Below, piece by piece: positions 6,214 to 60,693 of a stretch of DNA of 64,000 bases. A program made the translations under genes and the position numbers. The notes beneath the pieces were generated by a model, which did not search any database, was not told where the DNA came from, and saw only the letters and a list, made by a program, of their open reading frames with translations. The DNA comes from a bacterium (lineage in GTDB: Bacteria > Patescibacteriota > Patescibacteriia > Patescibacteriales > GWE2-39-37), in the NCBI GenBank assembly GCA_037146995.1, contig JBAWWA010000002.1, forward strand, positions 1,955 to 65,954, written 5' to 3'. Numbering within the stretch: position 1 is the first letter of the stretch; each line of letters starts with the position of its first letter.

Positions 6214-9142
<2,929 letters not shown>

Positions 9143-9179
9143 AAATATAGTATTACTCCTCTGCTTTAATTATAATAGA

Positions 9180-11327
9180 TTAGCTAACTTTAAAATAGTC
9201 ATCCTGGGGAAATAATTTTGACCCAGCCTTATGTAAACTCTTAACTTTCAGTTTATCACCTTTGGTCTTGTATACCTCGATTTCGAGCTTAAGCCAATCA
9301 ACGTCCATGGGATCTAACCTTTTACCGGTTTTTATATACTCCAAAGCCATATCCAGCTGACCAAGCATAATAGATGTGTCAGCGGATTTCTTATAGACCA
9401 GCTTTTCCTCGCGTATAACCATGGTTCGATGCTCTAGATTCATCATTTTGTCAGTCGTATTTGGATAGAGCTTTATGGCATTATTATAGTGTATTATGGC
9501 CCTTGAGAAATCACCCACCCGATAATTTAGATCACCCCAAGCTAGCTCGACTAAGGCATAACCGCCAGTATTTTTTTTAAGCTGACTAAATTTATCATTT
9601 ATGAGCAAAAATAGCTGGCTCTGGCCGCTAGGTAAGCCTGGTGGCAACAATCTGGTCAAAACCATCAAGGTGCTTAATTTTGCCCTAAAGGTCTGCGGCT
9701 CGTTATCAGTATTTAATATTTTTTTTAACAGTAAATCAAAAGCATTTTTATCAATCACGCCCGAATCGAGATAGCTTAAGGTAGTAGCTAATAACTCAGC
9801 CCGGTAAAAACCCTCAAATTGGTTGGAAGGTGCTGTGACAGTAATTTTATTTGCCCAAACAAGATAGTCGTTTTGGTTGCGAGCCAGGTTAAGCTGACGA
9901 AAATAATGACTTGCCATGATGCCTTGAATATAAATAAAAGAGAGATAACCGAGGAATGGCAATATTATTATTAAATAATAACTCCGCTGCCCAAGAGTAA
10001 TGACCTGGCGCTCACTAACCAAGGCTAAAATTATTCCCAAAGTCAAAGCCAAATAACTGGCCGTTACGATAGTAATAAATGAAAACAATAAACTAACCAA
10101 AAAACCCAAGAGAGCAAGTAACAACAATTTAACCACTTTTTGCTCCTGCAAATCAAGGCGAGTTTTATATGCTTGCTTAATAACTCTTAGAACAAACCAG
10201 GCCAATATTAAAGCTACACTAAAAGTCACCAAGCCTGACTCAAAAATAAAATCGAGAAAAATATTATGCAGTCTGTCAGGATTGGCATTTATGGCCTCGA
10301 CAATTGCCCAACTGCCATTATAATAGCGATACAAATAAAGCTCTTGCGTGTCCTGACCATACCCGAGTAAGGGTTTTTTGGAAATTAAGTCTAAGCCGCT
10401 CCGGTAAAGCCCAAACCTATACGTCCCCTGATTTAAGCTAAAAGTGCTTAAAACACGATTACCAACCGAGCTATAATTAATAAAAATATTTTCACTGGCC
10501 GTATTTTTGGTTATTAAAAAACCAGCAGTCATGGCTAGCAACAAAAATGTCAACAAACAGACTGAATAAAGTATCCATTTCTTTGCCTTAAATTGCCTCA
10601 AATAAAAAATAAAACTGACCAATACGGCTGCAAATAAACCAAGCCAACCGCTACGACTTAAAGTAAAAACAAGCGTTAGCAACTGTAACAACCACGAGAT
10701 TAAATAAAGAAACTTTAATTTGCTCTTAGTTACTAAATACCCCCACCAACTAAAAGCTAGACTAAAGAGTAAATATGCTGCCAAATAATTTGGCTGACCT
10801 AAAGTGCTGGCCGCTCGCAGACGCACCGGGTCAAATATTTCATACTCATAAAAATCTAGACCGGCCACCTGAAGTAAACCATAGATACTAACCAAACTAG
10901 CCGCAGCAGTCAGGGCAAGCAAAAAATATCTTAATTTTTCTTGAATTAATGGCCACCAAGCAAATACTAAATATAATAATAACCACAGCTCGAGCTCTAA
11001 AAAAAAGCCAAAACCTCGCATGGCGGAACCAAAAAAGGCGACGCTGCGAAATTCAGAATTGCATGCGCTCAAAAATCTTAGTGTAAAATATAATGCCCAA
11101 AGGTACAGCAACTTTTTATTTTGCGGCAAGACAAGTTCTTTGGTTAAAAAACTTTTCACTACAAACAATAGTGCTAGCCAAAAAATAAATACGCTAAAGA
11201 CGAAAATTTTAAATAATTCAAAAGAGTGCCAAATTTGCGAATTAAAAACCAAGGGCAAAGCAAAAAAACCAGCGCTTAAGCTAATAATTATTAAATGATT
11301 AATTTTTGAAATTATTTTTTCCTGCAT
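9180..11327 (-). CDS. O-antigen-ligase (Wzy_C) family membrane protein with C-terminal TPR repeats; candidate pilin O-glycosyltransferase
   Basis: About 12 TM segments. LSRSGWLGL motif typical of Wzy_C/O-antigen ligase/PglL/TfpO. C-terminal TPR-like YNNAIKLYP region. Gene immediately downstream of the pilin gene. Confidence 0.7.
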   Translation of the reverse strand: MQEKIISKINHLIIISLSAGFFALPLVFNSQIWHSFELFKIFVFSVFIFWLALLFVVKSFLTKELVLPQNKKLLYLWALYFTLRFLSACNSEFRSVAFFGSAMRGFGFFLELELWLLLYLVFAWWPLIQEKLRYFLLALTAAASLVSIYGLLQVAGLDFYEYEIFDPVRLRAASTLGQPNYLAAYLLFSLAFSWWGYLVTKSKLKFLYLISWLLQLLTLVFTLSRSGWLGLFAAVLVSFIFYLRQFKAKKWILYSVCLLTFLLLAMTAGFLITKNTASENIFINYSSVGNRVLSTFSLNQGTYRFGLYRSGLDLISKKPLLGYGQDTQELYLYRYYNGSWAIVEAINANPDRLHNIFLDFIFESGLVTFSVALILAWFVLRVIKQAYKTRLDLQEQKVVKLLLLALLGFLVSLLFSFITIVTASYLALTLGIILALVSERQVITLGQRSYYLIIILPFLGYLSFIYIQGIMASHYFRQLNLARNQNDYLVWANKITVTAPSNQFEGFYRAELLATTLSYLDSGVIDKNAFDLLLKKILNTDNEPQTFRAKLSTLMVLTRLLPPGLPSGQSQLFLLINDKFSQLKKNTGGYALVELAWGDLNYRVGDFSRAIIHYNNAIKLYPNTTDKMMNLEHRTMVIREEKLVYKKSADTSIMLGQLDMALEYIKTGKRLDPMDVDWLKLEIEVYKTKGDKLKVKSLHKAGSKLFPQDDYFKVS

Positions 11328-11350
11328 TTGTGTATTGTATCAATAAAACA

Positions 11351-11376
11351 AAAAACCCGCCAAGGCAGGTTTTTTG
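11351..11376. terminator. hairpin terminator between pilin gene and downstream Wzy_C gene
   Basis: AAAAACCCGC-caag-GCAGGTTTTTT with one mismatch, flanked by A-run and T-run. Confidence 0.5.
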
Positions 11377-11411
11377 TTTTAAATTCCTAATAGGATCCAA
11401 TAAGAATTCAA

Positions 11412-11846
11412 CTAATTGCTAATTTCACCAGGAGCTGCAGTATGAGCACCTGTATTTAATTCACCAGTCTTACCATTTAAAGTGAATGGTATATCGTAAG
11501 AAATTAACTCAGGATTAGCCAATGAAGTAGTTGCATGATAAACATAATTACCACCGCCGTACTTTGGCGTTTGCGCCATATAAGCTACGTAATCAGACGT
11601 ACCCTTGGTGCCTGTCGAAATTGAAGTCGGTAAAAAACCGCCATTCGAAGCAGGATAAGTACTCCAGTCATTTCGAAACAACTCAAGAGCTGTCTGAACG
11701 CTTTTAACATCTGAAACTATTTTGGCGTCTTGTGCCTTGGTACGAGCATTATTCAAAGAGATAACTGCCAAAGTTGACAGGATACCGATAATCGCGATAA
11801 CAACGAGCAACTCAATTAATGTAAAGCCTTTTTGATTTTTATTCAT
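11412..11846 (-). CDS. type IV pilin (class III signal peptide, N-methylation motif)
   Basis: MNKNQKGFTLIELLVVIAIIGIL: canonical G|FTLIE prepilin cleavage/methylation site followed by hydrophobic helix. Strong RBS GGAGGTG upstream. Confidence 0.9.
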   Translation of the reverse strand: MNKNQKGFTLIELLVVIAIIGILSTLAVISLNNARTKAQDAKIVSDVKSVQTALELFRNDWSTYPASNGGFLPTSISTGTKGTSDYVAYMAQTPKYGGGNYVYHATTSLANPELISYDIPFTLNGKTGELNTGAHTAAPGEISN

Positions 11847-12002
11847 TATTTCACCTCCTTTCTAATTATTAAATATGTTTATTAAAAAACAGTTATCCAC
11901 ATTATAACATAAATTTATATATAACCGGTAGTGGCAAGGCAAGTAAGCAATAATTCAATCAATTATTTTTTTAAAACAATCACTCTAAAACAACTCACCA
12001 CA

Positions 12003-12380
12003 TTAAACTAGCTTTAAGAGCTTCTTGACCTTAGCCACCACCTCCGCCGGCACAAAATGAGCCTTAATCAAATAATCCACTGCTCCCAAATCCAGACCAC
12101 TCTCCACTTCTGACCGCTGACTAAGATTTGTTAGCAATAGAACCATAATATTTTTTGTCTCATCATGAGTTTTTAGTTCTCGCAAAACATCAAGGCCATT
12201 CATTTTTGGCATCACAATATCAAGGAGAACAATGTCTGGCAATTCCTTTCTAGCAAGTCTTAAACCCTTTTCCCCGTCATCAGCACAAAAGACCTCAAAA
12301 TTTTCGAGCTCAAATTTGGTAGCATAAATACTTTGTAAAAATGAGTCATCCTCTACAATTAATAATTTAGGCTTGTTCAT
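12003..12380 (-). CDS. stand-alone response-regulator receiver (CheY-like REC) protein
   Basis: LLIVEDD acidic pocket, phospho-acceptor Asp in LLDIVMP, conserved Thr/Lys positions. 125 aa, no output domain. Confidence 0.8.
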   Translation of the reverse strand: MNKPKLLIVEDDSFLQSIYATKFELENFEVFCADDGEKGLRLARKELPDIVLLDIVMPKMNGLDVLRELKTHDETKNIMVLLLTNLSQRSEVESGLDLGAVDYLIKAHFVPAEVVAKVKKLLKLV

Positions 12381-12384
12381 TGAT

Positions 12385-13662
12385 TTAAATATAACGATCT
12401 AGTTTTAAAATATTATTAAACGCTAGCTCACCAGACAAGGCCTTAATCAGAGCATCCTGTCGCAAACTAACCAAGGTAGTGTCGTCTATTAAATCAATCA
12501 ATCGATATTGGCCAGTCTTATTAATTAAGCCATTTTTAAATTTCTTGTTAATCTGCGCAAATTCCACCAAGTCGGTCAGTCCTGTTAAGCCACTATTTTG
12601 ACATGACACACAACCGACGCCCTCGACAAAATGCCACTCCGAAGATATCAATTTAGCGAAAACTATTTTTGCCTTAACTGGCAAGTTATTGATTTCAGGC
12701 TGAATTAGATCTTTAGCTTGACTATCAATGTTAATAACTTGACGACATTTTTGACACACCTTTTCAATTTCTCTGACGACTAACACCCCACCAACCACCA
12801 AAAACCATAAATCTAGGTCGATATTTTGATGTCTTACAAATCTAAAAACATCATTTAAGCCATCAAAAATCATGCCGATAAAAACCTTCTTGCCGGCGAG
12901 TGCCAAATGAAGCGCAAAGTCAAGCTCAGCCGTGGTTTTTAATTCATCGATAATTATCACATCAAAATCCTGGGCCATCACCGCTCTCAGAGCAGTATCA
13001 CAAGTAAAACCAATTTCTGGCCTGATTTGTAATTGTTCAATCTTAGTAACATTTTTAGAGACATAATACTCAATCGATACCGCTTTTTCATTTTCACTTA
13101 AATTACTCAAGGCCAGAGAAAATAGGTAATCTTTGCGTTTTTCCACTTGCTTGCAAGTTACTATCGTGGCTGCCAGATTTTTCTTTAAATACTTGTCCAA
13201 AACCGCTTTGGTGAAATTATTAACTGGTAAGTCAGTAATTTTTTTATCTAGGTTATGATTAATATTAATCACCAAGCGAGATTCAGTTTGTGACAATTTA
13301 ATCCACGAAGCGTTTAAATAGTACTGGCGACCGTCTTGCTGATAAACTAGACGACTCAACTGAGGAAGCTTGTGTTGACTCTCGAAATCAAAATAATTAA
13401 CAACATAATTAAGTAATTCCAAAAATCTCACCCGATCGAATGCATAAACTATTCTTAATTTACCCTGATGACGGAACCTGATATTGCCGCCATTTTTTTG
13501 AAATTCAAAATGAATGGCCGTCACCGACTCATTGATCGCCGTGTCCACCACAACACCAAACAATCTATCGATTGCCAAATCAAAAAAATCCAACCGATGC
13601 AAATTTTTTGGAGTTATCGTTTCTAGGTTTTTTTTAGTTTTTTTTGCCAGAATTTTTGGCAT
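12385..13662 (-). CDS. PilB/PilT/GspE-family secretion-ATPase homologue with degenerate Walker A, Asp-box and His-box (probable pseudo-ATPase)
   Basis: Conserved TAIHFEF (SDIHIEP-like) and RFRHQG motifs, Walker-B-like DVIIIDEL and C-terminal tetracysteine CQKC...CVSC are present. No GxxGxGK[ST] anywhere in the 425 aa: the position reads TCKQVEKRKD. Confidence 0.65.
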   Translation of the reverse strand: MPKILAKKTKKNLETITPKNLHRLDFFDLAIDRLFGVVVDTAINESVTAIHFEFQKNGGNIRFRHQGKLRIVYAFDRVRFLELLNYVVNYFDFESQHKLPQLSRLVYQQDGRQYYLNASWIKLSQTESRLVININHNLDKKITDLPVNNFTKAVLDKYLKKNLAATIVTCKQVEKRKDYLFSLALSNLSENEKAVSIEYYVSKNVTKIEQLQIRPEIGFTCDTALRAVMAQDFDVIIIDELKTTAELDFALHLALAGKKVFIGMIFDGLNDVFRFVRHQNIDLDLWFLVVGGVLVVREIEKVCQKCRQVINIDSQAKDLIQPEINNLPVKAKIVFAKLISSEWHFVEGVGCVSCQNSGLTGLTDLVEFAQINKKFKNGLINKTGQYRLIDLIDDTTLVSLRQDALIKALSGELAFNNILKLDRYI

Positions 13663-13664
13663 AT

Positions 13665-14711
13665 TTATTCAAATCTATCAAGAGCTAAGCCTGCCGCCAC
13701 TGACAATCTAGGACTGATTTCAGTCAAAAGCGGCTTAAGCTCCAAAGGATACGAGATATGTGACCAAGAATCACCAACTATTACATTCATATTTAAAATA
13801 CGCGAAAGATAATTGGCCAAATTTGAAATCAAAGCTGAGCCGCCAGTTAGGATTAATTTTTCTACCTTCTTGTCACCTCGTCCCTGATAAAGGCCTATTA
13901 AATATTTTATCTCATTAACCAAAGGACTTAGAGACTCTTGAATAGTTTCAGATATTTGCGAATCAGCCGAATCGATAGCACTAATGCCCAGATCAAACTT
14001 CAGTTGCTCTGCTTCTTCCAGGCTAATGCTCATTTTTTGCGCCAAAATCTTTGACAAATTATCACCACCAATCTCAATGCTACGATTTAAAAAAGGTATG
14101 CCGCGTTCGATAATCGATACGTTAGTGGTTGTTGCACCAAATTCAGCAATCATAATCGTTGTCTTGTCGCGACCCATCAAGGCCCTGATCAACGAAAATG
14201 TTTCTGACTCAAGGTTTATTAATTTTAATTTGGCTTTTTTAAAAATATCTTGATACTTGGTAACCAGTACACGCGGAGCCGCAATAACAAAAATCTTTAA
14301 AAGTTCTCGGTTATTTTCCAAACGAGACTCGATCAAGCGCCATTCTAGAACTACATCTTCGATCGGTACCGGTAAAACTTTTTTAGTTTCCCATTCGACT
14401 GCTTGGTCAATCTTTTCCTTGTCGATATCAATCAGATTTATAATTGAAGAAAAAACCGAATAAGCCGGGAGCGAAGCCACGACTGAAGTCGCCTTCATGC
14501 CTGCCTGCGCAATAGTCTTGACTATCAATTCAGCAATTTTATCATTATCATTTCTCCATTTAACTTCAGCATCAGGTGTCAAATTTTCACTAAAGCCATA
14601 ACTTAGCAGCTTGGCCTGATCGCCTACCTTGGTTAATTCAACAATTTTTACACCAGAACTGCCCATATCGATACCAAGGTATCCGGTTTCAGGTGAAGAT
14701 AATATTCCCAT
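13665..14711 (-). CDS. pilM: type IV pilus assembly protein PilM (actin-like ATPase fold)
   Basis: N-terminal GIDMGSSGVKIVEL phosphate-1 motif. 348 aa. FtsA/PilM-like organisation. Head of the pilus gene string. Confidence 0.8.
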   Translation of the reverse strand: MGILSSPETGYLGIDMGSSGVKIVELTKVGDQAKLLSYGFSENLTPDAEVKWRNDNDKIAELIVKTIAQAGMKATSVVASLPAYSVFSSIINLIDIDKEKIDQAVEWETKKVLPVPIEDVVLEWRLIESRLENNRELLKIFVIAAPRVLVTKYQDIFKKAKLKLINLESETFSLIRALMGRDKTTIMIAEFGATTTNVSIIERGIPFLNRSIEIGGDNLSKILAQKMSISLEEAEQLKFDLGISAIDSADSQISETIQESLSPLVNEIKYLIGLYQGRGDKKVEKLILTGGSALISNLANYLSRILNMNVIVGDSWSHISYPLELKPLLTEISPRLSVAAGLALDRFE

Positions 14712-30426: not shown

Positions 30427-30462
30427 ACCACTTATTTTTATAATTTTGTAATTTTTTACTAT

Positions 30463-30490
30463 AAAACAGCAATAAAATTGCTGTTTTATT
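30463..30490 (+). terminator. rho-independent terminator after SPFH gene
   Basis: Perfect AAAACAGCAAT-aaa-ATTGCTGTTTT. Confidence 0.65.
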
Positions 30491-30630
30491 ATGCTTTACT
30501 TTTTACCCCTATTAAATTAAAATATAAAGACTAAAATACTTATACACAAGGCCTTAAGGAGGGGCTTTGTTTTTGGTCGAGGGATAGCTCCCCAACATAC
30601 AAAAAGCCTTTAGCTAATAACTAAAAACCT

Positions 30631-31254
30631 ATGCAAACCCCCTTCAAACGTCCATCATGGGATGAATATTTCATGAAAATTACCGAAATCGTCGGCTCAA
30701 GAGGCACTTGTGACCGTGGTCGTTCAGGCTGCGTAATCACCAAGGAAAAAAGAATCATCTCCACAGGCTATGTCGGTTCCCCGATTAACACCATGCATTG
30801 CGATGAGGCAGGACATGAGATGCACACGGTAACTCACCCGGACGGCTCACAATCAAGACACTGCATCAGAACTACTCATGCCGAACAAAATGCTATTTGC
30901 CAAGCAGCACGAACAGGTATTGCCTTGGGTGGCGCTACCCTTTACTGCAAAATGACACCTTGCTACACCTGTGCAAAAATGATTATCAATTCAGGCATTG
31001 CCCGTGTCGTTTGCGATAATGACTATCATGCAGGCAAACGCAGTAAAGAAATATTCGCCGAGGCCGGCGTACAATTCAAGCTTTTGAACTCTGAGACAAT
31101 TACTTATGCTGATATGAAACCGGAGGCAAAAATAAACATAAAGATCAGCGAGACATTAAATCAGATTAAAGACACCGCAGTGCCTGTCAAGGTTATCTCA
31201 AACAGTCAGTTAACCGAAAATGACAACCTAGTGTCGGCAGAAATTCCACTATAA
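30631..31254 (+). CDS. dCMP deaminase (cytidine/deoxycytidylate deaminase zinc-binding family, ComEB-like)
   Basis: HAEQNAI zinc-ligand motif and PCYTCAKMI second motif. 207 aa. Confidence 0.8.
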   Translation: MQTPFKRPSWDEYFMKITEIVGSRGTCDRGRSGCVITKEKRIISTGYVGSPINTMHCDEAGHEMHTVTHPDGSQSRHCIRTTHAEQNAICQAARTGIALGGATLYCKMTPCYTCAKMIINSGIARVVCDNDYHAGKRSKEIFAEAGVQFKLLNSETITYADMKPEAKINIKISETLNQIKDTAVPVKVISNSQLTENDNLVSAEIPL

Positions 31255-31258
31255 AATT

Positions 31259-31813
31259 ATGGCAAAATTAATTATTGGCATTACCGGCCTTATGGCCTCT
31301 GGCAAAGGCACGGCAGCAAAATACATTGTTGATAACTACAGCGCCTCGTCACATCGCTTTTCGACCATGTTACGGGACACTTTGGATAGATATTATCTAC
31401 CTCATACTAGAGAAAATATGGTCACCGTATCAGAGATAATGCGGACTAGTTTCGGCCAAGATATTCTGGCTAAAGTAATGGCCGAAGATGCTAAAAATGA
31501 TGAAAAAGAAATTGTTGTAATCGAGGGCATCAGGCGCATGGCAGACATTACCCACCTGAGCAAACTCAATAATTTTGTCCTTGTGCAAATTATTGCTGAG
31601 CCAAAATTGAGACATTCAAGACTCTCGATACGCGGCGAAAATGCCGATGACAACACAAAAACTTACGACCAATTCATTCAAGACCACAATCTACCAACTG
31701 AAAAAACTATTCCTGAAGTCATGAATCAGGCCAAGGAAACATTGGACAATAATCTAGACATGAAAGAGCTTAGTGTCCAAATTGATAACTTGATAAAAAA
31801 ATTGATTTTATAA
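31259..31813 (+). CDS. P-loop nucleoside/nucleotide kinase-like protein (paralogue A)
   Basis: Walker A GITGLMASGKGT. Conserved HRFST...RD...TREN...VIEGIRR...RGEN LID-like arginines. Confidence 0.6.
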   Translation: MAKLIIGITGLMASGKGTAAKYIVDNYSASSHRFSTMLRDTLDRYYLPHTRENMVTVSEIMRTSFGQDILAKVMAEDAKNDEKEIVVIEGIRRMADITHLSKLNNFVLVQIIAEPKLRHSRLSIRGENADDNTKTYDQFIQDHNLPTEKTIPEVMNQAKETLDNNLDMKELSVQIDNLIKKLIL

Positions 31814-31814
31814 T

Positions 31815-32369
31815 ATGGCCGAACAAATAATTTTTGGATTAGTTGGTGAACAAGCCAGTGGCAAGGGTGAAGCAAGTAAGTACATTAAAGAGCGTTACGG
31901 AGCTGCCAGTTATCGTTTCTCCACTCCGATGCGCGATATCTTAAATCGCGTTCAACTACCCCTAACTAGGGAGAACCTGCAAGATGTCTCGACAATACTT
32001 AGAAAAAGATTTGGTCAAGACTTATTTGTAAATGCCATTATGCGTGATATCAAATATGATCCTACAAAAATCATCATCGTCGAGGGCATCAGATTATTAA
32101 TCGACACCGAGAAGTTAAGTCAATTACCAAATTTTAAATTAATTTACATAGACACTAGTCCTGAAGCACGTTTTGCCAGACTAAAGCACCGAGGTGAAAA
32201 TACTGATGATCACTTAAAAACTTTTGAAGATTTTGAAAAAGACCACGAAAAAGAAACGGAGCAACAAATTATCAAGCTCAAGATGCAAGCTAATTACGTG
32301 ATTGACAACGAAGGTAGTCTGACAGAATTACACAAAAAACTCGACAACATAATAAAAGGAGGATTATAA
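31815..32369 (+). CDS. P-loop nucleoside/nucleotide kinase-like protein (paralogue B)
   Basis: Walker A GLVGEQASGKGE. Same conserved LID-like motifs as paralogue A (YRFSTPMRD...TREN...VEGIRL...HRGEN). Same length (184 aa). Confidence 0.6.
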   Translation: MAEQIIFGLVGEQASGKGEASKYIKERYGAASYRFSTPMRDILNRVQLPLTRENLQDVSTILRKRFGQDLFVNAIMRDIKYDPTKIIIVEGIRLLIDTEKLSQLPNFKLIYIDTSPEARFARLKHRGENTDDHLKTFEDFEKDHEKETEQQIIKLKMQANYVIDNEGSLTELHKKLDNIIKGGL

Positions 32370-32396
32370 ATCCTCTTTTGTTATCTACAAAATATC

Positions 32397-33515
32397 ATGA
32401 AAAACACGAATGGAAAATTTATTGTCATAGATGGTACCGATGGCTCTGGCAAAACCACTCAACTTGAATTATTGGCAAGCAGATTAAAAAGCCTGGGTTA
32501 TAAGGTAGAGTTAGCAGACTTCCCTCAATACAATAACAAGTCAGCCGGTCTGGTTGAGGAATATTTATCGGGCAAATATGGGAGCGCTGATGAAGTTGGA
32601 CCATATATTGCCTCAGTTTTTTATGCCGTCGATCGTTTTGACGCCAGCTTTAAAATCAGAGAATGGCTCAAGAGCGGAGCCATTGTTTTATCCAATCGCT
32701 ATGTTGCCGCCAATATGGGCCACCAAGGAGGTAAAATTTCCAACCCCCTTGAGAGAAAAGCCTATTTTGATTGGCTATACAAACTCGAGTTCGAAATGTT
32801 CAACCTGCCCCAGCCAGACCTAAACTTAATTTTACATGTTCCCGCCAGGGTGGCTGCCGAAATGGCCGCCGCCAGAACTCGAATTGATTGGTCGGGCAAG
32901 ACGGCAGACATTCACGAAGACAATCTCTCACACCTCATTAATGCCGAGCAAACGTATTTAGAAATAGCCGAAGGCTTTCCAAATTTTAAATTAGTCTCCT
33001 GCGCACAGGATAATCTAATAAAATCAAAAGAAGAGATAAATGACCTCATTTGGTCAGAAATCAATCAATTAATCAACCCAAACGCCGAACCAGAATATAT
33101 CGATATCGAAATAATCAATCAACAAGGGAAACTACCAACAAGAGGCAACGAAAACGACGCTGGTCTGGACTTATATAGTGCCGATTACTACACACTTCTG
33201 CCAGGCGATCGAGCTATAATCTCAACTGGTATTAAGATTGCCATACCAAATGGCTACACAGGCTTGATCTGGGATAAAAGTAGCGTATCTAGTTGCGGTA
33301 TCAAAGTACTAGGCGGAGTCATAGATGCTGGCTATCGCGGTGAAATAAAAATCGGTCTCATTAATTTGAGCCGCGAGCCATATCTAATAAGCTCTAGCCA
33401 AAAAATAGCACAAATCTTAATTCAAAAAATAAGTCTACCAAAAGTCAGGACAAATAAAATCAACGACAATACCTCGCGCGGTACAAATGGTTATGGTAGC
33501 ACTGGTATGTATTAA
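32397..33515 (+). CDS. bifunctional thymidylate kinase / dUTP pyrophosphatase fusion protein
   Basis: N-terminal Tmk P-loop IVIDGTDGSGKTTQ with DRF/LID. C-terminal dUTPase motifs RGNENDAGLDLYSA, GYRGEI and a terminal Gly-rich tail. Confidence 0.75.
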   Translation: MKNTNGKFIVIDGTDGSGKTTQLELLASRLKSLGYKVELADFPQYNNKSAGLVEEYLSGKYGSADEVGPYIASVFYAVDRFDASFKIREWLKSGAIVLSNRYVAANMGHQGGKISNPLERKAYFDWLYKLEFEMFNLPQPDLNLILHVPARVAAEMAAARTRIDWSGKTADIHEDNLSHLINAEQTYLEIAEGFPNFKLVSCAQDNLIKSKEEINDLIWSEINQLINPNAEPEYIDIEIINQQGKLPTRGNENDAGLDLYSADYYTLLPGDRAIISTGIKIAIPNGYTGLIWDKSSVSSCGIKVLGGVIDAGYRGEIKIGLINLSREPYLISSSQKIAQILIQKISLPKVRTNKINDNTSRGTNGYGSTGMY

Positions 33516-33561
33516 TGATGATTATTAAGTTTTTAGCCAAGTAAAAAATTCAATCAAAAAT

Positions 33562-34962
33562 ATGAACAATTCACCTAGAATTTATGCCTTAAAAAATTTA
33601 TCCCCAGAAGTCGCCGCAGTAACTTTTGCTAAATGTTCAAGATCGGCTGAACCATTTGACGTCATAGCTAGAGAGCTAAGCGATGAGAAATCAGCCGAAT
33701 TTAACGAAAAATGGGTGGTAAATTATGGCCATGGCTCAGTAGCTGAACATGCCTTTATGAATATTGCCATCGAAAACGTTTCACTTATTGCCGTCGAAGC
33801 AATTCAGGCAAATCGTCTGGCGTCATATACCGAAAAATCATCACGCTATCAGGTTTATACCAGAGATAGAGTTTTCGTGCCAAAGGCCCTATATTACGAT
33901 TCGCGCCTCATATCTAGTTATCTAGAATCGATAAACGCTCTATATGATCTTTATGAAAAATCAATTGAACCAATCAAAGCGGCAATCGAAAAACTATACC
34001 CGAATGACAAAAATCTAAGCGAAGCAGCATATCAAGCCAGCATTAAGTCTAAATGGATAGACGTAGTACGTTTCGCTTTACCCAATACTGCTTTAGCAAA
34101 TTTAGGCATGAGTGCCAATGCCCGCACCATGGAATATGCCATAACTAAAATGCTTTCACACCCGCTAGAAGAGGTTCGTGAAATTGGCGAATCTGTTAAG
34201 CGCGTGGCACTAGAAATCACGCCTACCCTGGTTAAATACGCTGACGCTTCAAATTACTATGCCAGAAATGAAGACTTTTTATTCAAAACTTCGCTTGACC
34301 AATTGGATGCCGTAAAGCCTAGCGACTTTAATAGAGACAATCAACTATCAGTCGATCTAATCGACTACGACCCGAATGGCGAAAACAAGGTTCTAGCGGG
34401 CATGCTTTATAAATTTAAATCAATTTCTTATCGTGAAGCTTTAGAACACGTAGAAAAAATGACTGAAGCTGATAAGGCAGAGATTTTCAAAACTATTCTT
34501 GGTGATGCCAAAAATATTTACGAGAAGCCGCCACGTGAGCTCGAATATCCATACTACACCTTCGATGTTATGCTCGATCAAGGTGCCTACTACGACCTCA
34601 AGCGCAATCGGATAATGACCCAAACTCCACAAATTTTAAGCGCTGATTATGGCTACTATACACCAAAATTATTTGATCAAGTTGGCCTAGGTAACGATTA
34701 TCGCAAAGCCATGGACCAGGCGCATGAGACAGCAAGACTTATAAGCCAATATCATCCTTACGAGGCTCAATATATTACCACTAAGGCAACGGCGCGACGT
34801 TTTGTCATGAAAATGAACCTAAGAGAAGCTTTTTATTTCATTGGACTGCGCTCACGCCAAGGCGGACACTTCACCTACCGCAAAATTGGCCAACTATTAC
34901 ATCAGCAAATCCTAAAAGTCCATCCAAACTTAGCAAAATATATACTAGTGGATAATAGTTAG
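33562..34962 (+). CDS. tandem-duplicated ThyX-like (flavin-dependent thymidylate synthase family) protein with degenerate RHR motifs
   Basis: First repeat: EAIQANRLASYTEKSSRY aligns with ThyX ELVRHRIASYSQQSQRY, and the ARFALPNTALANLGMSANARTMEYAITKM helix is ThyX-like. Second repeat has LKRNRIMTQT and a NLREAFYFIGLRSRQGGH tail. Confidence 0.6.
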   Translation: MNNSPRIYALKNLSPEVAAVTFAKCSRSAEPFDVIARELSDEKSAEFNEKWVVNYGHGSVAEHAFMNIAIENVSLIAVEAIQANRLASYTEKSSRYQVYTRDRVFVPKALYYDSRLISSYLESINALYDLYEKSIEPIKAAIEKLYPNDKNLSEAAYQASIKSKWIDVVRFALPNTALANLGMSANARTMEYAITKMLSHPLEEVREIGESVKRVALEITPTLVKYADASNYYARNEDFLFKTSLDQLDAVKPSDFNRDNQLSVDLIDYDPNGENKVLAGMLYKFKSISYREALEHVEKMTEADKAEIFKTILGDAKNIYEKPPRELEYPYYTFDVMLDQGAYYDLKRNRIMTQTPQILSADYGYYTPKLFDQVGLGNDYRKAMDQAHETARLISQYHPYEAQYITTKATARRFVMKMNLREAFYFIGLRSRQGGHFTYRKIGQLLHQQILKVHPNLAKYILVDNS

Positions 34963-35036: not shown

Positions 35037-35273
35037 ATGAAACAACTTAGTAGCATGATAATTAGGGCTAAGATTTTTTGTGCTGTCTCAATGTTGCTAG
35101 TTGGTTATAATTTAGTATCATTACTTCTGTTCAATTTAACCACGGAGCAAACTGCTGAATTTGTCTTAAAAGGACAAATCATGACGTTTTACTTTTTTAT
35201 AGCAAATATTTGGCATGATTTCCTGCTATTTAAAGTCAAACCCCGAATTTGCCAAGATAAATGGAGTGAATAA
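35037..35273 (+). CDS. small membrane protein (78 aa)
   Basis: Two hydrophobic helices. ORF only. Confidence 0.35.
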   Translation: MKQLSSMIIRAKIFCAVSMLLVGYNLVSLLLFNLTTEQTAEFVLKGQIMTFYFFIANIWHDFLLFKVKPRICQDKWSE

Positions 35274-35521
35274 TGAAACCAGGCCCTGCGTTCGTCCTTA
35301 TTAGCTTAATAATATTGCGCCTACTCTCAGTTGTCATTTTTTTCACCATTTTTGCTATGTTGATTATACTAGCCTCAGATACTCTGCCGCCAAACTATAT
35401 TAAACATATTTACAAATTTGGGACAAGCCTTAGTCATTTTTTCTTTGCTCTTGGCATAACAATTGAATGCTTAAATTTAGTACTCAAGTCACATGCAAAT
35501 AATCACAAAAACCGCGTTTAA
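35273..35521 (+). CDS. small membrane protein (82 aa)
   Basis: ATGA overlap with the upstream ORF. Two hydrophobic helices. Stop embedded in a terminator hairpin (35508-35536). Confidence 0.35.
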   Translation: MKPGPAFVLISLIILRLLSVVIFFTIFAMLIILASDTLPPNYIKHIYKFGTSLSHFFFALGITIECLNLVLKSHANNHKNRV

Positions 35522-42165: not shown

Positions 42166-42777
42166 TTATTTATATATTTTTTTAAATATTTGATCAAACT
42201 CAAGTAAATTATCCCCCTCATACATAAGCTTTTCTTCTTCTGACAAATCCATGAACGACTTACCTAGAGCGGTATCGATCGTCACAGCACTCATTGGCCA
42301 GCCCTCTTTGTATAATGACCAATTTGGCGTATCTAAAACTTTAAATTCCCTACTCCAGCGCATTACATGTTCAGAGCCATCCGAGGTAACTATAGCACGA
42401 CTTATTTTAAAATAACCTTTTCTATCTTTATCGTTGACTTGTTTCATTTGATCAAGAAAAAAATCAAGCCATTCTCGATCACCAATTTCATCAGAGAATC
42501 GGCCTGCCCAGCGTCTCACCTGCACACCTGGCATATTGCCTAGAGCCGGTATATACATTCCGGCATCATCCGCGAAGCTTGCAACCCCGCTAAGCTTTGC
42601 ATAGTATCTAGCCTTTATTAAAGCGTTTTCCGTTTCATCTAGTCCGTTTTCTTCAACTACACTGCTAATTTTAAAATCATTAAGTGACAATAACTCTAAA
42701 TCAAAACTCGTCAGCAATTTTGAGAAATACTCTAACTTGGCCTTGTTGTGGGTGGCTATCAATAATTTATTCTTCAT
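42166..42777 (-). CDS. Ham1/RdgB-like non-canonical purine NTP pyrophosphatase (tentative)
   Basis: N-terminal LLIATHNKAKLEY matches the (S/T)xNxxKxxE Ham1 signature. About 200 aa. Confidence 0.45.
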   Translation of the reverse strand: MKNKLLIATHNKAKLEYFSKLLTSFDLELLSLNDFKISSVVEENGLDETENALIKARYYAKLSGVASFADDAGMYIPALGNMPGVQVRRWAGRFSDEIGDREWLDFFLDQMKQVNDKDRKGYFKISRAIVTSDGSEHVMRWSREFKVLDTPNWSLYKEGWPMSAVTIDTALGKSFMDLSEEEKLMYEGDNLLEFDQIFKKIYK

Positions 42778-50205: not shown

Positions 50206-50289
50206 GCCGTGGTGGTGGAATTGGTATACGCAGGAGACTCAAAATCTCCCGGTCGCAAGGCCTTGAGGGTTCGAGTCCCTCCCGCGGCA
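50206..50289 (+). tRNA. tRNA-Leu (anticodon CAA), type II
   Basis: Acceptor GCCGTGG/CCGCGGC with a G-U pair, anticodon stem GGAGA/TCTCC with loop CTCAAAA, long variable arm, T-arm GAGGG-TTCGAGT-CCCTC, discriminator A. Confidence 0.8.
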
Positions 50290-50300
50290 CAAATAAAAAA

Positions 50301-50502: not shown

Positions 50503-52302
50503 CTAAAATTTCCAAATTAACCATCCAGGTCCTGGATTTATTAATTGAACAACTGATGCCATCATCACTCCAGGCGCTGCCTCTATCATAATTTCAAACT
50601 CCGAAAACCTAGAATCTACAAATTTAGACTTTGCTGTTTTTAGTGACTTTGCCGTATCTATTCTTGCGTTATCAATGGAAAATAATTTAATGTAGTCCTG
50701 CTCACGTGAGATGCCTTGTTCATCGAAGAAAGATACATATTTCAACGCTGTTTCAATGTCTTTGGAGTCTAGCGCCTCTGCCATCTTTTCCAATGCCTCT
50801 TGAGGTGTTTTTGAATATATTCGAGTATTTTCAATTCTTTTAGAAAATTCTTCAGCTTTAATAATTTCTTTATCTACTGCTACAGACTCGATCAATGCCT
50901 CATTACAATCTGCACGATATATTGATAACACATCACTGCCATATACAATGCCAATATTATCAATAAATATCATATCACTTAAAATTACCCCCCAATTATA
51001 TAATCCTAGTTTTTTTGCAATTTTCCAACTAATGGCGCCGTTATTAGTTTCAAAGATGTAGCCGCCACCAAATAAATATCCATTCATTTTATCTTTAAAA
51101 TATACCTTTAAGTAATTATTAAGTGCATTCTCAACACTTAACATTTTCTTATCTTCGTCGAATTTTTCTACATTATTTATAATTTCAAGACCAATCCAGT
51201 TCTTTCCGCCATCGATAGTTTTCAATATTTTATGCTTATTATACATAAAGCCAACTTGACTATCTACAAAGAATATATTCTTCAATTGTGTCGTCGTACT
51301 ATATATCTCATTCCAAGACAAACCACCATCAACCGTACTCCAAATCTTATCAGACGTATCAAGACCATTATTTACTGACTCGCCCTTACCGTAAGCCCAT
51401 CCTTCATTATCGTTAATAAAAAACAAGCCATTTATTTCATGGAATATATTACTATCGTGCAATGCCCAATTATCGCCTCCATCATCGGTTTTATAAAGAA
51501 GGTCGTTATTTTTATAATTAGTACTTCCCATTATTAACCACCCTTTTTTTGAATCCAAAAAATAAAATTTTTTCACTGACATATGATTAGAAGCTGGAAG
51601 CCACATTTTTTCCACCCAAGTATTCCCACTATCATATGTTTTTAATACATATTGCCCTTCTTCTTTTGTAATTTCACCAGGTTGCCTTAAACCGCCATTA
51701 CTAACAGTAAGTGCAGAAAGCCAATTTTTTTCATCTAAGAAATGAGTCACTGGCCGTAATTCAGTGCTGCCCTTCCACTCGATTTTTGAAATATCCAACC
51801 AATTGATGCCGCCATCAATTGTTTTATGCAAACCACCTTCTTGATCTGCAGCAAAGCCAACTCTATCATTAATAAACTGAATAATTGTGTATCCTATTGG
51901 TAGGTCAATATTTTTCCAATGACTCACCTCAGTGGAGGCTGAAAGAGATGTAGTACTACAACCTAAAACTTGATTATTGATTTTATTAGTAATTGCAATT
52001 TCTTCTTTTTTATTTACACTACTATTAACATCACCAACCTGAATATTCTTATAATTATTCTTCTTGATATTTATGTAAGTATAAATACCTATAGTTGTAA
52101 AAACAAATACAATAATAACAACCAATAATACCTGCTTATTTGTTGCTGCTTTTTTATGTTTCGATGATAAATCTATTTCATTTATACATTCCTCAATTTC
52201 AGAAACAGACCAACTTTTCGACAGGTCGGCTTGCACTTCTGGATATTCTTTGCCAGATTTAAGTTGTTGATTTATAACATCTATGAGTTGTTTGTTTATC
52301 AT
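50503..52302 (-). CDS. membrane-anchored BNR/Asp-box repeat beta-propeller protein (Ycf48/sialidase-like fold)
   Basis: N-terminal TM. Six or more S/T-x-D-G-G-x-x-W Asp-box motifs (TIDGGINW, TYDSGNTW, TDDGGDNW, TVDGGLSW, TIDGGKNW, TNNGAISW). Confidence 0.6.
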   Translation of the reverse strand: MINKQLIDVINQQLKSGKEYPEVQADLSKSWSVSEIEECINEIDLSSKHKKAATNKQVLLVVIIVFVFTTIGIYTYINIKKNNYKNIQVGDVNSSVNKKEEIAITNKINNQVLGCSTTSLSASTEVSHWKNIDLPIGYTIIQFINDRVGFAADQEGGLHKTIDGGINWLDISKIEWKGSTELRPVTHFLDEKNWLSALTVSNGGLRQPGEITKEEGQYVLKTYDSGNTWVEKMWLPASNHMSVKKFYFLDSKKGWLIMGSTNYKNNDLLYKTDDGGDNWALHDSNIFHEINGLFFINDNEGWAYGKGESVNNGLDTSDKIWSTVDGGLSWNEIYSTTTQLKNIFFVDSQVGFMYNKHKILKTIDGGKNWIGLEIINNVEKFDEDKKMLSVENALNNYLKVYFKDKMNGYLFGGGYIFETNNGAISWKIAKKLGLYNWGVILSDMIFIDNIGIVYGSDVLSIYRADCNEALIESVAVDKEIIKAEEFSKRIENTRIYSKTPQEALEKMAEALDSKDIETALKYVSFFDEQGISREQDYIKLFSIDNARIDTAKSLKTAKSKFVDSRFSEFEIMIEAAPGVMMASVVQLINPGPGWLIWKF

Positions 52303-59224: not shown

Positions 59225-59231
59225 ATATTTT

Positions 59232-60692
59232 TTAACTTAAATTTTTTATAATATCAACCACGAAGCCAGTGCCACTTGACGATGTAAACCAAACACCCAA
59301 CAAGATAACTGCAATTATATGAACCAACATGACACTGTGAGTAATATTCCAGTGCTCTCGTGTCTCATTTAAATCAGTAGTATTTGCTTTTTCCAAAATC
59401 ATACCAATTGTCGTTCTTAGCATGCCAAAGGCAATAACACCAAGGGCAATGAAAACCGCGATTGACAGATACAAATGAGCTTTGATCATTGCCGAAAAGA
59501 GCGTAAATTCACTAACAAATAATATTGACGGTGGCATTGCCACAATAAAAATTATCCCGATTAAAAACAAAGAGCTCGTATAGGGCGCATACTTTAACAA
59601 GCCGCCAACTTTAGTTGTGTCAGTTGTTTTATAGCGCAACAGTATTTCACCAGCTCCAAAAAATAATCCAGATTTTATGATTGAATGACCAATCATATGG
59701 ATAACTGCAGCCATTACGCCGATAGGCGGCAAGGCCAAGCCTAGGGCAATCAAGCCCATGTGCTCAATACTTGAATAGGCGAGCATCCTTTTGTAATTCC
59801 TTTGCACGAGCAACATAAAGGCTGGTAATACGACCGACAAGATACCGAAAAATAAAAAGAATTTACCAGTCCATTCACTCCCGCCTATGGCCTGATTAGC
59901 AATCATTTGAAAACGAATAATCGCATACAAAGCCACGTTTAACAATATGCCAGAAAACAAGGCCGAGATTGGCGATGGCGCCTTGCTGTGGGCATCTGGT
60001 AGCCACGTATGGATTGGCGCGAAACCGACTTTAGCACCAAAACCCACAAAGATAAAAACAAAAGCCCATTTTACAAGCTCCGGCGACAAGGCGCTAGTAT
60101 TCTTCAATAAATCACTGATCAAAAAACTAACTGATTGATCTGCCCCAGCCTGCGATGTATAACCGAGTAAAAGTATGCCAATCAAACCTAAAGTAATACC
60201 AGTTGAGCAAATAATAATATATTTCCAAGCAGCCTCAAGTGATGAGCGCTTGCGATAAAGACCAACCAAGAAGGTCGAAGATAAAGTTGTTGCTTCTAGA
60301 GCCAACCACATAATCAAAGTATTATTAGTGACAACGACTAAAAACATTGCCATCACGAACAAAGGTAGCAAAGTGAAATATAATTTTAGATCATTGATTT
60401 TCACCTCTCCATCCTTAAATTCATGACCAATATAGCGCACACTAACAATAGTGGCACTTAAAGATAATAAAGCGATTAGACTAGCAATCAAGGCTCCGAA
60501 TCTATCCAAATAAAACCACTCAGTAATTAAAACCTCTGTGCCAAAAAATTGTGGTGAGACGAATAACCAAATTGTCAAAGCAGAAGCGATGGATACAGCA
60601 CCAGCCGACAAACGAATGATTTTTTCGTTTTTTTGCACCACAGCAAGAATGACTGCCAAACTAAAAAGTCCAAAGATAAATAAAATATTCAT
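59232..60692 (-). CDS. NuoN/NuoM/MrpD-family antiporter-like membrane subunit
   Basis: 14 TM helices. Hallmark ...GFAPIHTWLPDAHSKAPSPISAL. Confidence 0.85.
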   Translation of the reverse strand: MNILFIFGLFSLAVILAVVQKNEKIIRLSAGAVSIASALTIWLFVSPQFFGTEVLITEWFYLDRFGALIASLIALLSLSATIVSVRYIGHEFKDGEVKINDLKLYFTLLPLFVMAMFLVVVTNNTLIMWLALEATTLSSTFLVGLYRKRSSLEAAWKYIIICSTGITLGLIGILLLGYTSQAGADQSVSFLISDLLKNTSALSPELVKWAFVFIFVGFGAKVGFAPIHTWLPDAHSKAPSPISALFSGILLNVALYAIIRFQMIANQAIGGSEWTGKFFLFFGILSVVLPAFMLLVQRNYKRMLAYSSIEHMGLIALGLALPPIGVMAAVIHMIGHSIIKSGLFFGAGEILLRYKTTDTTKVGGLLKYAPYTSSLFLIGIIFIVAMPPSILFVSEFTLFSAMIKAHLYLSIAVFIALGVIAFGMLRTTIGMILEKANTTDLNETREHWNITHSVMLVHIIAVILLGVWFTSSSGTGFVVDIIKNLS

Positions 60693-60693
60693 A

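Follow-up and report, generated by a model that had tools for sequence, protein, structure and literature searches.

The dTTP pathway of Gram-positive bacteria and eukaryotes leads from a dCMP deaminase (ComEB or DCTD) via thymidylate synthase to thymidylate kinase (Tmk) and is accompanied by a dUTPase (Dut). Other described systems that resemble single parts of the locus presented here are the "AdkA-like" protein SSO1041 from Sulfolobus solfataricus (PDB 3lw7 and 3h0k; PRK08356), the dNMP kinase of the phage T4 gp1 type (PF21448, phrog_139), the AvcD/DCD protein (NF041025, PADLOC dCTPase PDLC02373) and the double-length ThyX of Chloroflexi/Anaerolineae and of some large phages (phrog_36506). 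Here, we describe an operon within a stretch of 64,000 nucleotides (the window) that belongs to a Patescibacteria (CPR) chromosome and carries cellular housekeeping genes throughout (NusG, L11, L1, GatA/B, DnaB, DnaE, LigA, ThrRS, ParAB and GroEL). Its products would provide the same four activities as the known pathway, with dUMP arising from dCMP deamination and from dUTP hydrolysis before being methylated and phosphorylated. In contrast with this pathway all steps are united in a single compact operon, Tmk and Dut form one polypeptide, a double-domain ThyX replaces ThyA and two UPF0200-type kinases are embedded. We consider it probable that the region represents a housekeeping operon for thymidine nucleotides that is typical of the Patescibacteria lineage and vertically inherited, with additional (d)NMP kinases.

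Five co-directional open reading frames on the plus strand (30631-34962) encode a dCMP deaminase, the kinases K1 and K2, a Tmk::Dut fusion and the double-domain ThyX, with intergenic spacings of 4, 1, 27 and 46 nt. Inspection of open reading frames together with Pfam and NCBIfam profiles confirmed the gene content given in the original prediction (dCMP deaminase, two paralogous kinases, Tmk::Dut and tandem ThyX), and its gaps of 1-27 nt with 46 nt before the last gene hold as well, the first gap of 4 nt lying inside this range. Second copies of the operon genes were not found in the window. On the 5' side a 204-nt gap precedes the deaminase gene and contains a promoter-like site, TTTACT-17-TAAAAT (30495..30523, +), that matches the consensus in 9 of 12 positions; the number of promoter-like matches in the region is not above chance, and the -10-like TAAAAT block is kept in the relatives L088, L089 and L063. 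It is followed by a leader hairpin with a U-run, CACAAGGCCTTAAGGAGGGGCTTTGT TTTTT (30545..30575, +), which is a candidate attenuator or 5'-UTR element. This hairpin occurs only once in the window, has the same sequence in the window, L088 and L089 despite saturated synonymous sites and belongs to the minimum free energy fold, with z = -1.8 for the whole leader; no Rfam family matched the leader. Co-transcription of the five genes would start from the promoter-like site and include this leader (30495-30575). A candidate terminator-like hairpin with a 13-pair stem (30461..30489, +), detected in a consensus scan as a consensus match only, lies 3' of the Band7/SPFH gene and would delimit the operon on its upstream side.

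The first gene (30631..31254, +) encodes a putative dCMP deaminase of the ComEB/DCTD type with 207 aa. Both zinc motifs (HAE and PCxxC) are intact in the translation as HAEQNA and PCYTCA, and the match to PF00383 (dCMP_cyt_deam_1; 4.8e-22) reaches 78.2 bits at a cut-off of 25. The protein also matches phrog_174 (5e-39) and TIGR02571 (ComEB; 7e-33); with 113.7 bits under the TIGR02571 cut-off of 219.45 it is, at the level of sequence, a relative of ComEB and not an equivalog. Its C-terminal tail of about 55 aa is confined to the close clade, and the orthologues of L088 and L089 comprise 207 aa each. The Tmk::Dut fusion (32397-33515, +; 372 aa) contains both domains in a single reading frame. 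Its thymidylate kinase domain (aa 1-228; 32397..33080, +) has an intact P-loop (GTDGSGKTT) and DRF motif and matches PF02223 (Thymidylate_kin) with residues 11-211 (5.7e-20; 72.2 bits, cut-off 27) as well as PRK07933 (3.6e-32); with TIGR00041 it scores 66.3 bits, under the equivalog cut-off of 83.25. The dUTPase domain of the trimeric type (aa 233-372; 33093..33515, +) shows all five typical motifs, namely AGLDL, DKSS, GVIDAGYRGE, KIAQIL and the C-terminal RGTNGYGSTG (motif V). It matches PF00692 with residues 244-370 (2.2e-28; 99 bits, cut-off 22) and exceeds the cut-off of TIGR00576 (118.5 bits, cut-off 102.55).

The last gene (33562-34962, +; 466 aa) encodes a protein that matches PF02511 (Thy1/ThyX) in two stretches (1.5e-40; 139.4 bits, cut-off 24.8) and TIGR02170 with 65.7 bits, below the cut-off of 87.9. 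In the AF2 model (pLDDT 91.6) the pattern of strands and helices repeats between residues ~1-247 and ~263-466. Comparison of the model with ThyX structures from Mtb, T. maritima and other sources yields a probability of 1.00 and TMt values of 0.64-0.77, single-domain structures covering about half of the model length. The N-terminal domain (aa 1-247; 33562..34302, +), detected by Pfam, motifs and the model, has GH.S..EH, one arginine of RHR (ANR) and S..S.RY. As no direct sequence match was found among the ThyX entries of the PDB for the C-terminal domain (aa 263-466; 34348..34962, +), it was assigned from the repeated fold, from the second stretch matched by Pfam and from a weak resemblance to the N-terminal half; the two halves are barely alike (22% identity, E = 0.008). 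The C-terminal half has R.R (RNR) and N.R...F...R and lacks the S.RY loop. Since the canonical RHR(X)7S motif is complete in neither half, we treat thymidylate synthase activity as likely and not as certain. Active-site residues are divided between the halves, which would complement each other in what is probably a pseudo-dimer. The two-domain architecture of ~460-490 aa is shared with proteins of named Anaerolineae and Chloroflexi (44-50% identity) and with the double-length ThyX of some large phages (24-27% identity over 94-99% of the length). Most other Patescibacteria possess a different double ThyX of 429 aa (22-28% identity) that is encoded elsewhere in the operon. Searches in structure databases and in the literature revealed no solved structure and no biochemical study of a two-domain ThyX.

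K1 (31259..31813, +) and K2 (31815..32369, +) comprise 184 aa each and match the P-loop kinases AAA_17 and AAA_18 of Pfam. They share 46% identity over 178 aa (E = 2e-55) and score below the curated cut-offs of all named families, so that the two additional paralogous kinases of unclear specificity in the original prediction are well supported. K1 shows 64% identity to the lone kinase of the syntenic locus L063 and groups with it in the NJ tree; by sequence it is orthologous to the kinase that the operon of the nearest relatives carries in single copy. K2 is kept in L088 and L089 and has a longer branch. Purifying selection acts on both kinases (pN/pS of 0.20 for K1 versus L088, dN/dS of 0.03-0.10 among K2 orthologues). 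Residues of the P-loop, the NMP site and the LID (G16, K17, R40, R93, R119, R122 and R126) are invariant among 31-34 family members, and the arginines align with R44, R97, R128 and R132 of AK1, as expected for NMP kinases with their P-loop GxxGxGKGT and the arginines of NMP site and LID. The family profile matches SSO1041 over its full length (2.5e-27, positions 5-179) and next AK1 and UMP/CMP kinases. The same order was obtained in a Foldseek search with the AF2 model of K2 (pLDDT 91.7), the top match being 3lw7_A (SSO1041 with AMP; TM 0.77/0.83). With this archaeal protein, itself functionally uncharacterised, K1 and K2 have in common the length, the P-loop, the DG.R motif and a short, arginine-rich LID, but the identity is only ~20% and the CPR kinases possess their own invariant motifs RFST..RD and R.EN.DD..KT. 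In the profile NF006226 (PRK08356; cut-off 189) K1 reaches 54 bits and K2 89.4 bits. On these sequence criteria both are a sister group of the archaeal UPF0200/SSO1041 family and not members of it; the literature searched contained no mention of the UPF0200 family.

The resemblance to the T4 gp1-type kinase concerns small P-loop NMP kinases beside dCMP deaminase, thymidylate synthase and dUTPase functions, and an analogous role in re-phosphorylation of dNMPs from degraded DNA is plausible. However, the Pfam profile DNMK (PF21448) covers only the N-terminal ~45 residues of K1 and K2 (profile positions 2-49 of 232; 21.1 and 24.5 bits at a gathering threshold of 27.1), the match of PDB 1dek is marginal and even the best phage proteins do not exceed 30% identity. 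Because phrog_139, annotated as dNMP kinase, matches over the full length (1e-16 and 1e-19), both kinases may work like the T4-type enzyme without belonging to its family. Throughout the Patescibacteria such kinases adjoin the dCMP deaminase, often as two to three paralogues, and Rosetta-stone fusions of the types K::Dut and K::K exist, a kinase and Dut being direct neighbours in 8 loci. The most likely role of K1 and K2 is that of (d)NMP kinases acting on deoxynucleotides from salvage.

The genomic setting is shared widely. The block NusG-L11-L1-(Band7)-deaminase (Dcd)-kinase(s)-Tmk/Dut/ThyX-GatB is present in dozens of Patescibacteria species, and in relatives with the operon between NusG-L11-L1(-Band7) and GatB the fusion protein is 52-80% identical. 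Among 80 species-representative Patescibacteria loci found via the kinase, Dcd lies at most 3 kb from it in 51 of the 64 loci whose flanks are long enough; in 54 of 60 loci Tmk, Dut or ThyX is nearby, and in 49 of 60 GatB. At E <= 1e-10 there are 2,941 homologues of Tmk::Dut and 3,894 of the double-length ThyX; those with names come from Patescibacteria and, for ThyX, also from Chloroflexi. Divergence from relatives correlates with that of GatB for Tmk (rho 0.64) and Dut (rho 0.68). Identities of Dcd and ThyX follow the housekeeping genes poorly, as relatives carry either of two types of each, which also means that the operon content is not purely vertical for every gene. Since in some relatives Dcd, ThyX and the second kinase have given way to other types, exchange occurs at the level of single genes.

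Such switches of type in three slots are among the points that would fit a nucleotide-metabolism island from a phage or another horizontal source, as was originally proposed from the phage-like clustering. All five families are known in large phages (PHROGs), double-length ThyX occurs in jumbo phages and cyanophages, and the codon-usage z values are uniformly slightly positive (+0.7 to +1.8 when corrected for gene length and strand, five of five, no outlier). Against this origin, the flanks with ribosomal proteins and GatB are syntenic phylum-wide and Tmk and Dut co-diverge with GatB. CPR relatives of the operon proteins show 45-89% identity and the best phage matches just 24-43% (kinase 24-30%, separate Tmk or Dut 31-43%, ThyX as given above). 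None of 2,300 matching phage records covers at least 80% of the Tmk::Dut query, and a search of IMG/VR yielded no such fusion and a sole kinase match of 28%. Neither integrase nor tRNA-adjacent boundary, repeats or GC shift were found at the operon or its flanks; the proposed comparison with flanking genes revealed GC and GC3 indistinguishable from the remaining window and a codon usage that is shifted slightly at most. Composition, mobility genes, distribution and phage matches do not mark a mobile or phage island, and synteny, low phage identity, lack of the fusion in phages and co-divergence with GatB largely refute this origin, which we regard as highly improbable. The original prediction had itself named grouping with the housekeeping enzymes of the host lineage, with no phage affinity and no other copies, as the outcome that would contradict it; this is largely what was found (a host-lineage operon, low identity to phage proteins, no extra copies in the window), with the single-slot replacements as the departing part. 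Its further suggestion of a modified-pyrimidine supply, e.g. for hypermodified thymidine derived from 5-hmdU with the kinases acting on modified nucleotides or DNA, could draw on two additional kinases that lack an assigned specificity, on the variable chemistry of the ThyX fold and on the non-canonical motifs in both ThyX halves. But genes for a hydroxymethylase, a glycosyl- or amino-transferase or any other modification enzyme are absent from the operon and its immediate neighbourhood, the kinases keep the arginines of NMP site and LID unlike polynucleotide kinases and their PHROGs matches are dNMP kinases. As the operon moreover serves housekeeping almost throughout a large phylum and its Dut removes dUTP, such a pathway has scarcely any probability.

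The deaminase and a kinase could also represent, divided over separate genes, the anti-phage dCTP deaminase AvcD/DCD, in which a kinase-like P-loop domain and a domain with the dCMP-deaminase fold, distant homologues of K1/K2 and the deaminase, are combined for defence by dCTP depletion. The kinases indeed match the kinase-like domain of the PADLOC dCTPase (~153-330, E 2e-7 to 7e-10) and the deaminase its catalytic core (positions 437-484, 3.2e-20), NF041025 is matched too, and in ~25 loci a paralogue K' is encoded directly upstream of Dcd, which is the order of the fusion. Yet the scores with NF041025 are 60.2, 17.3 and 21.8 bits at a cut-off of 400, and AvcD is a single fused protein of defence islands, whereas here separate genes in opposite order occupy a core-genome slot with ThyX, Tmk and Dut. 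The deaminase matches the ComEB type (7e-33) better than the anti-phage enzyme (1.6e-16, restricted to the core) and no antitoxin-like RNA was found, the leader being without Rfam match, so that a defence function appears quite improbable. Somewhat less remote, but still unlikely, is that the kinases act outside deoxynucleotide metabolism, e.g. as dephospho-CoA or nucleoside kinases, and are only co-located. JGI automated annotation names some members dephospho-CoA kinase, and there are weak matches to CoaE, uridine kinase and dNK, with CoaE folds ranking slightly lower in the structural comparison. However, the nearest characterised relatives by both sequence and fold are AK1 and UMP/CMP kinase, the arginines that bind the NMP phosphate are conserved and the kinases adjoin Dcd, Tmk, Dut and ThyX phylum-wide, including the fusions with Dut.

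For the vertically inherited housekeeping operon the following pathway can be proposed by homology. The ComEB-type deaminase would convert dCMP to dUMP and the Dut domain dUTP to dUMP, thereby keeping uracil from DNA. The double-domain ThyX would methylate dUMP to dTMP, which the Tmk domain would phosphorylate to dTDP. A dedicated supply line from dCMP and dUTP to dTDP encoded by five genes, as envisaged in the original prediction, is in good agreement with the domain identities and intact motifs. For K1 and K2 the most likely substrates are dCMP and/or other (d)NMPs obtained by salvage. In a scavenging context phosphorylation of dCMP by these kinases would mean that the pool of scavenged dCMP may be split between dCTP and dTTP.

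The five co-directional genes expected by the original prediction at 30631–34962 are present as described in the open reading frame list, all on the plus strand with intergenic gaps of 4, 1, 27 and 46 nt, and their domains were assigned with Pfam and NCBIfam. The first gene (30631–31254, 207 aa) encodes a dCMP/cytidine deaminase, Dcd (PF00383, 4.8e-22; ComEB-like, 7e-33), with intact HAE and PCxxC motifs. It is followed by two P-loop kinases of the AAA_17/AAA_18 type (Pfam/NCBIfam), K1 (31259–31813) and K2 (31815–32369), each of 184 aa, that are indeed paralogous to each other (46% identity, E = 2e-55). The fourth gene (32397–33515, 372 aa) encodes thymidylate kinase (residues 11–211) and dUTPase (residues 244–370) as one polypeptide, Tmk::Dut, in which GTDGSGKTT and DRF of the kinase and all five dUTPase motifs are intact. 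The last gene (33562–34962, 466 aa) encodes a ThyX, to which the family profile aligns in two stretches (1.5e-40). The Gram-positive and eukaryote-type route to dTTP relies on the same dCMP deaminase, Dut, thymidylate synthase and Tmk, but here these are compacted into one operon. A C-terminal extension of the deaminase of about 55 aa (residues ~152–207) is restricted to the closest relatives; the protein has 207 aa also in their loci L088 and L089, and 163–190 aa elsewhere.

The window belongs to a cellular chromosome and not to a phage. Upstream of the operon are found genes for NusG, L11, L1 and a Band7/SPFH protein, and downstream the gene for GatB. The remaining part encodes GatA, LigA, type IV pilus proteins, RadA, DnaB, RecR, MiaA, MiaB, ThrRS, Ham1, DnaE, ParA/ParB, GroEL and a complex-I/Mrp-like module together with three tRNAs. 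All named close homologues of the island proteins are from Patescibacteria (CPR), and within the 64-kb window tblastn detected each of the five functions only once.

The arrangement is not restricted to this genome. In L088 and L089, where the fusion is 80% identical, the five-gene layout with two kinases is the same, whereas L006/L007 possess identical flanks (NusG-L11-L1-Band7 and two small ORFs-GatB) but only one kinase. The Tmk::Dut homologues looked up at 52–58% identity lie in the same operon. A scan with the kinase alignment, restricted to one genome per species, yielded 212 relatives, of which the best 80 loci were analyzed; all those with informative titles are from CPR (Moran-, Falkow-, Magasanik-, Lloyd-, Lipton- and Portnoybacteria, Parcubacteria). 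When the proteins of the window were mapped onto these best 80 loci, Dcd was located at most 3 kb from the kinase in 51 of the 64 that have enough flank, Tmk, Dut or ThyX near the kinase in 54 of 60 and GatB near it in 49 of 60, with NusG-L11-L1 upstream in most mapped loci. Identity to the window correlates between GatB and both Tmk (rho 0.64) and Dut (0.68), which at least equals the controls between housekeeping proteins (0.40–0.57); such co-divergence is informative only for Tmk and Dut, since K2 has reached saturation and switches between types confound the comparison for Dcd and ThyX. With E ≤ 1e-10 there are 2,941 homologues of the fusion, and the double-length ThyX has 3,894. Because of this synteny, the correlation of Tmk and Dut with GatB and the homologue counts, the operon, the Tmk::Dut fusion and the double ThyX are lineage features, and the system is common in public CPR genomes. 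Many loci whose gene content and synteny are clearly those of Patescibacteria (L009, L020, L022 and others) have “uncultured Gammaproteobacteria”, “Bdellovibrionales” or “Saccharibacteria” in their record titles; they are “binchicken” co-assemblies, and the taxonomic labels of these records look unreliable.

While the slots of the operon are kept, their occupants may change. Relatives judged close from their housekeeping proteins have a Dcd that is either 60–77% or only 27–41% identical to that of the window. Their double-length ThyX either has 466 aa, follows Tmk::Dut and is 67–89% identical to the protein of the window, or has 429 aa, is encoded between Dcd and kinase and is only 22–28% identical to it. 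In the comparison of L002/L004/L008 with L006/L029/L063 and the window gene at 33562–34962 these two types look unrelated. The 466-aa ThyX is 44–50% identical to named Anaerolineae/Chloroflexi proteins, and one protein of a Patescibacteria MAG (P0371) falls in the same band. In L089 the K1 slot (4080–4634 of that locus) contains a different, SSO1041-like kinase with 27% identity and the P-loop GLPGSGKTE, lacking the RFST..RD and GENADD motifs, although all other genes of the locus are 69–89% identical to those of the window; this is an in-place non-orthologous replacement. The alternation of Dcd and ThyX types together with this kinase swap means that single-gene replacement occurs inside a vertically maintained operon. 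No link between these replacements and phages was found.

These data bear directly on the view that such dense clustering points to a phage-like or horizontally acquired island. The operon resembles phage nucleotide modules in gathering the same enzymes, but only in this respect, and it belongs to no phage or mobile module. When 50,697 phage genomes were searched by tblastn with kinase, fusion and ThyX, the closest match to the kinase was 29.6% identical (43 records, mostly from Bacillus phages), separate phage Tmk or Dut matches reached 31–43%, and a full-length double ThyX was detected in a few jumbo and cyanophages with 24–27% identity; none of the 2,300 matching records contained the Tmk::Dut fusion over at least 80% of its length. 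Two scans of IMG/VR gave one kinase match (28% identity) and no fusion. Thus, phage matches are distant or partial, with the fusion never near full length, and a phage origin is rejected: identities of 24–43% to phage proteins compare with 45–89% to CPR relatives, synteny is phylum-wide and GC3 is not shifted. Composition had been proposed as a further check. The GC content is 0.39–0.41 throughout island and flanks, and GC3 does not differ between the five island genes and the other 43 genes of the window (p = 0.22). The island genes have a raised raw codon-usage distance (Mann–Whitney p = 0.007), but this measure varies strongly with the length and the coding strand of a gene, which largely explain the shift; after both were regressed out, z ranges from +0.7 to +1.8, being positive for all five genes with none an outlier. 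The island proteins are hence closest to the host lineage and show essentially no phage affinity, the absence of second copies being established for the 64-kb window; this verdict of vertical descent is based on identities, synteny and correlations within the window and its relatives.

Of the two functional interpretations offered originally, a supply line for modified pyrimidines finds no support, and a dedicated dTTP supply line is supported. A role in anti-phage defence was considered as well. The anti-phage dCTP deaminase is a fused enzyme to whose two parts the deaminase and the kinases of the operon are distantly homologous, but PADLOC matches cover partial domains only. The operon is not such a defence system: deaminase and kinases are encoded separately, they score far under the cut-off, and their surroundings are those of core metabolism. 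A literature search on the AvcD kinase domain gave nothing useful.

The kinases deserve a closer look. A family profile of 34 sequences matches the Sulfolobus UPF0200 protein SSO1041 (3lw7, 3h0k) over full length with E = 2.5e-27, followed by AK1, yeast and human UMP/CMP kinases, CoaE and T4 gp1 (1e-7 to 1e-6). Similarly, the AF2 model of K2 (pLDDT 91.7) has 3lw7, crystallised with AMP, as best Foldseek match, and next come short-type adenylate and UMP/CMP kinases. Both kinases miss the cut-offs of every curated family (PRK08356, DNMK, CoaE, Udk), and phrog_139 (“dNMP kinase”) matches K1 and K2 over full length with 1e-16 and 1e-19. They form a sister group of archaeal UPF0200 outside PRK08356, DNMK, CoaE and Udk. 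Invariant in the family are G16, K17, R40, R93, R119, R122 and R126. Their counterparts in AK1 are the P-loop lysine, the two arginines that contact the NMP phosphate and those of the LID; at the level of aligned residues such a set marks a nucleoside-monophosphate kinase and not a nucleoside or polynucleotide kinase. Gln101 of AK1, the base-reading position (Asn in UMP/CMP kinases), aligns with a near-invariant Asp (D97 in K2), and this acidic residue would favour amino-bearing bases.

With clustering at 50% identity, an exhaustive search revealed 991 kinase clusters for E ≤ 1e-30 and 5,646 for E ≤ 1e-10, among them K::K fusions (P0179, P0185, P0195) as well as one protein, P0301, that is a K::Dut fusion. 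Among the best 80 of the 212 loci Dut directly follows the kinase in eight, and two or three kinase paralogues occur in 28, these being a divergent K' (~30% identical) directly upstream of Dcd in 27 and tandem K-K in five. Kinase and dUTPase are associated in L033, L054, L071, L076, L080, L083 and L087; in loci of the Magasanikbacteria type Dut comes immediately after the kinase, in most cases with no Tmk detected close by, but L076 has one ~2 kb downstream. An NJ tree, which carries no support values, places K1 together with the single-copy kinase of L063, the nearest syntenic relative (64% identity), and K2 with its L088/L089 orthologues on a separate long branch. Both kinases are under purifying selection (K1, pN/pS 0.20; K2, dN/dS 0.03–0.10). 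All this places them functionally in the deoxypyrimidine operon, most likely as (d)NMP kinases, for which dCMP would be the obvious candidate because it is the branch-point substrate common with the deaminase. Far more tentative, and on balance rather doubtful, is the wider proposal that the UPF0200-like proteins are CPR-wide dedicated dNMP kinases with K, K', K2 and the further paralogue K3 differing in base specificity. These paralogues would re-phosphorylate dNMPs from imported DNA in DNA-scavenging, biosynthesis-poor CPR, analogous to the role of T4 or T5 dNMP kinases in infected cells, and D97 would then serve to select amino-bearing bases, for example cytosine. A literature search found no publication on UPF0200.

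The AF2 model of ThyX (pLDDT 91.6) shows the strand-helix pattern of ThyX twice, at residues ~1–247 and ~263–466, and matches single-domain ThyX structures over ~220–230 columns. In the alignment with the enzyme of M. tuberculosis, A-N-R...S-Y-T-E-K-S-S-R-Y of the N half stands opposite the canonical R-H-R...S-x-R-Y; this half keeps Ser, Arg and Tyr of the dUMP loop plus one Arg. The C half lacks the S.RY loop and keeps R348-N-R350 and the C-terminal N.R...F...R. All these residues are invariant across 38 homologues. That the motif residues are complementary between the halves fits a pseudo-dimer; two copies of the fusion would then imitate the ThyX tetramer but form fewer active sites that are complete. 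No structure or published study of a two-domain ThyX was found in PDB and literature, and the C half alone had zero PDB matches by sequence.

The gap of 204 nt before the deaminase gene holds three elements found by sequence scan: a terminator-like hairpin after Band7 (30461–30489), a promoter-like site (30495–30523) of a kind that is no commoner than chance region-wide, and just downstream of it a hairpin with U-run (CACAAGGCCTTAAGGAGGGGCTTTGT TTTTT; 30545–30575). This last block is unique within the window and identical in L088 (1276–1291) and L089 (3418–3433) despite saturated synonymous sites in the adjacent genes; it is absent from the other 87 loci. It may be a putative clade-specific attenuator or regulatory RNA, and an Rfam scan of the leader gave a chance lncRNA match only. 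A leader peptide was discarded, as the mini-ORF with AAGGAGG and TTG has six codons in the window and two in L088.

Some further features of the window are worth mentioning. Two small hydrophobic ORFs between ThyX and GatB (35037–35273 and 35273–35521; 78 and 82 aa) have no Pfam match but are probably real small membrane proteins because ORFs of similar size occupy the same position in L006/L007, L088 and L089. A 599-aa ORF (50503–52302), also lacking a Pfam match, shows the window's minimum of both GC (0.327) and GC3 (0.267) and adjoins tRNA-Leu (50206–50290); as a candidate for foreign DNA it ranks ahead of the thymidylate island. The region 57671–63998 encodes a fused complex-I 30 kDa/49 kDa-like subunit, a NuoH-like protein and two Mrp/NuoL-M-like antiporter subunits, which suggests a membrane-bound hydrogenase- or Mrp-like complex in a CPR genome. 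The type IV pilus set (8330–14711; prepilin peptidase, T2SSE ATPase, PilM) and the Ham1/RdgB non-canonical NTP pyrophosphatase (42166–42777) fit DNA or nucleotide scavenging plus sanitation of the nucleotide pool.

No publication describing this operon in Patescibacteria was found in the literature search. The main value of the analysis is corrective: a dense cluster of fused and duplicated nucleotide genes in a small CPR genome is a lineage-wide housekeeping operon, not one to be flagged as phage island or DNA-modification pathway. The operon would illustrate how dCTP and dTTP are balanced from salvaged precursors in ultra-small symbionts, and it offers a natural system for the division of active-site residues between ThyX halves. 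The part worth follow-up is the kinase family with its recurrent paralogues. Structures of UPF0200/SSO1041 have been available since 2009–2010 with the function unassigned, and the phylum-wide adjacency to Dcd, Tmk, Dut and ThyX, the K::Dut and K::K fusions and the paralogues now provide a testable hypothesis for it. If the wider and rather doubtful proposal of CPR-wide dNMP kinases were true, it would be the first function for the family and would indicate from which metabolic enzyme the kinase-like domain of anti-phage dCTP deaminases descends.
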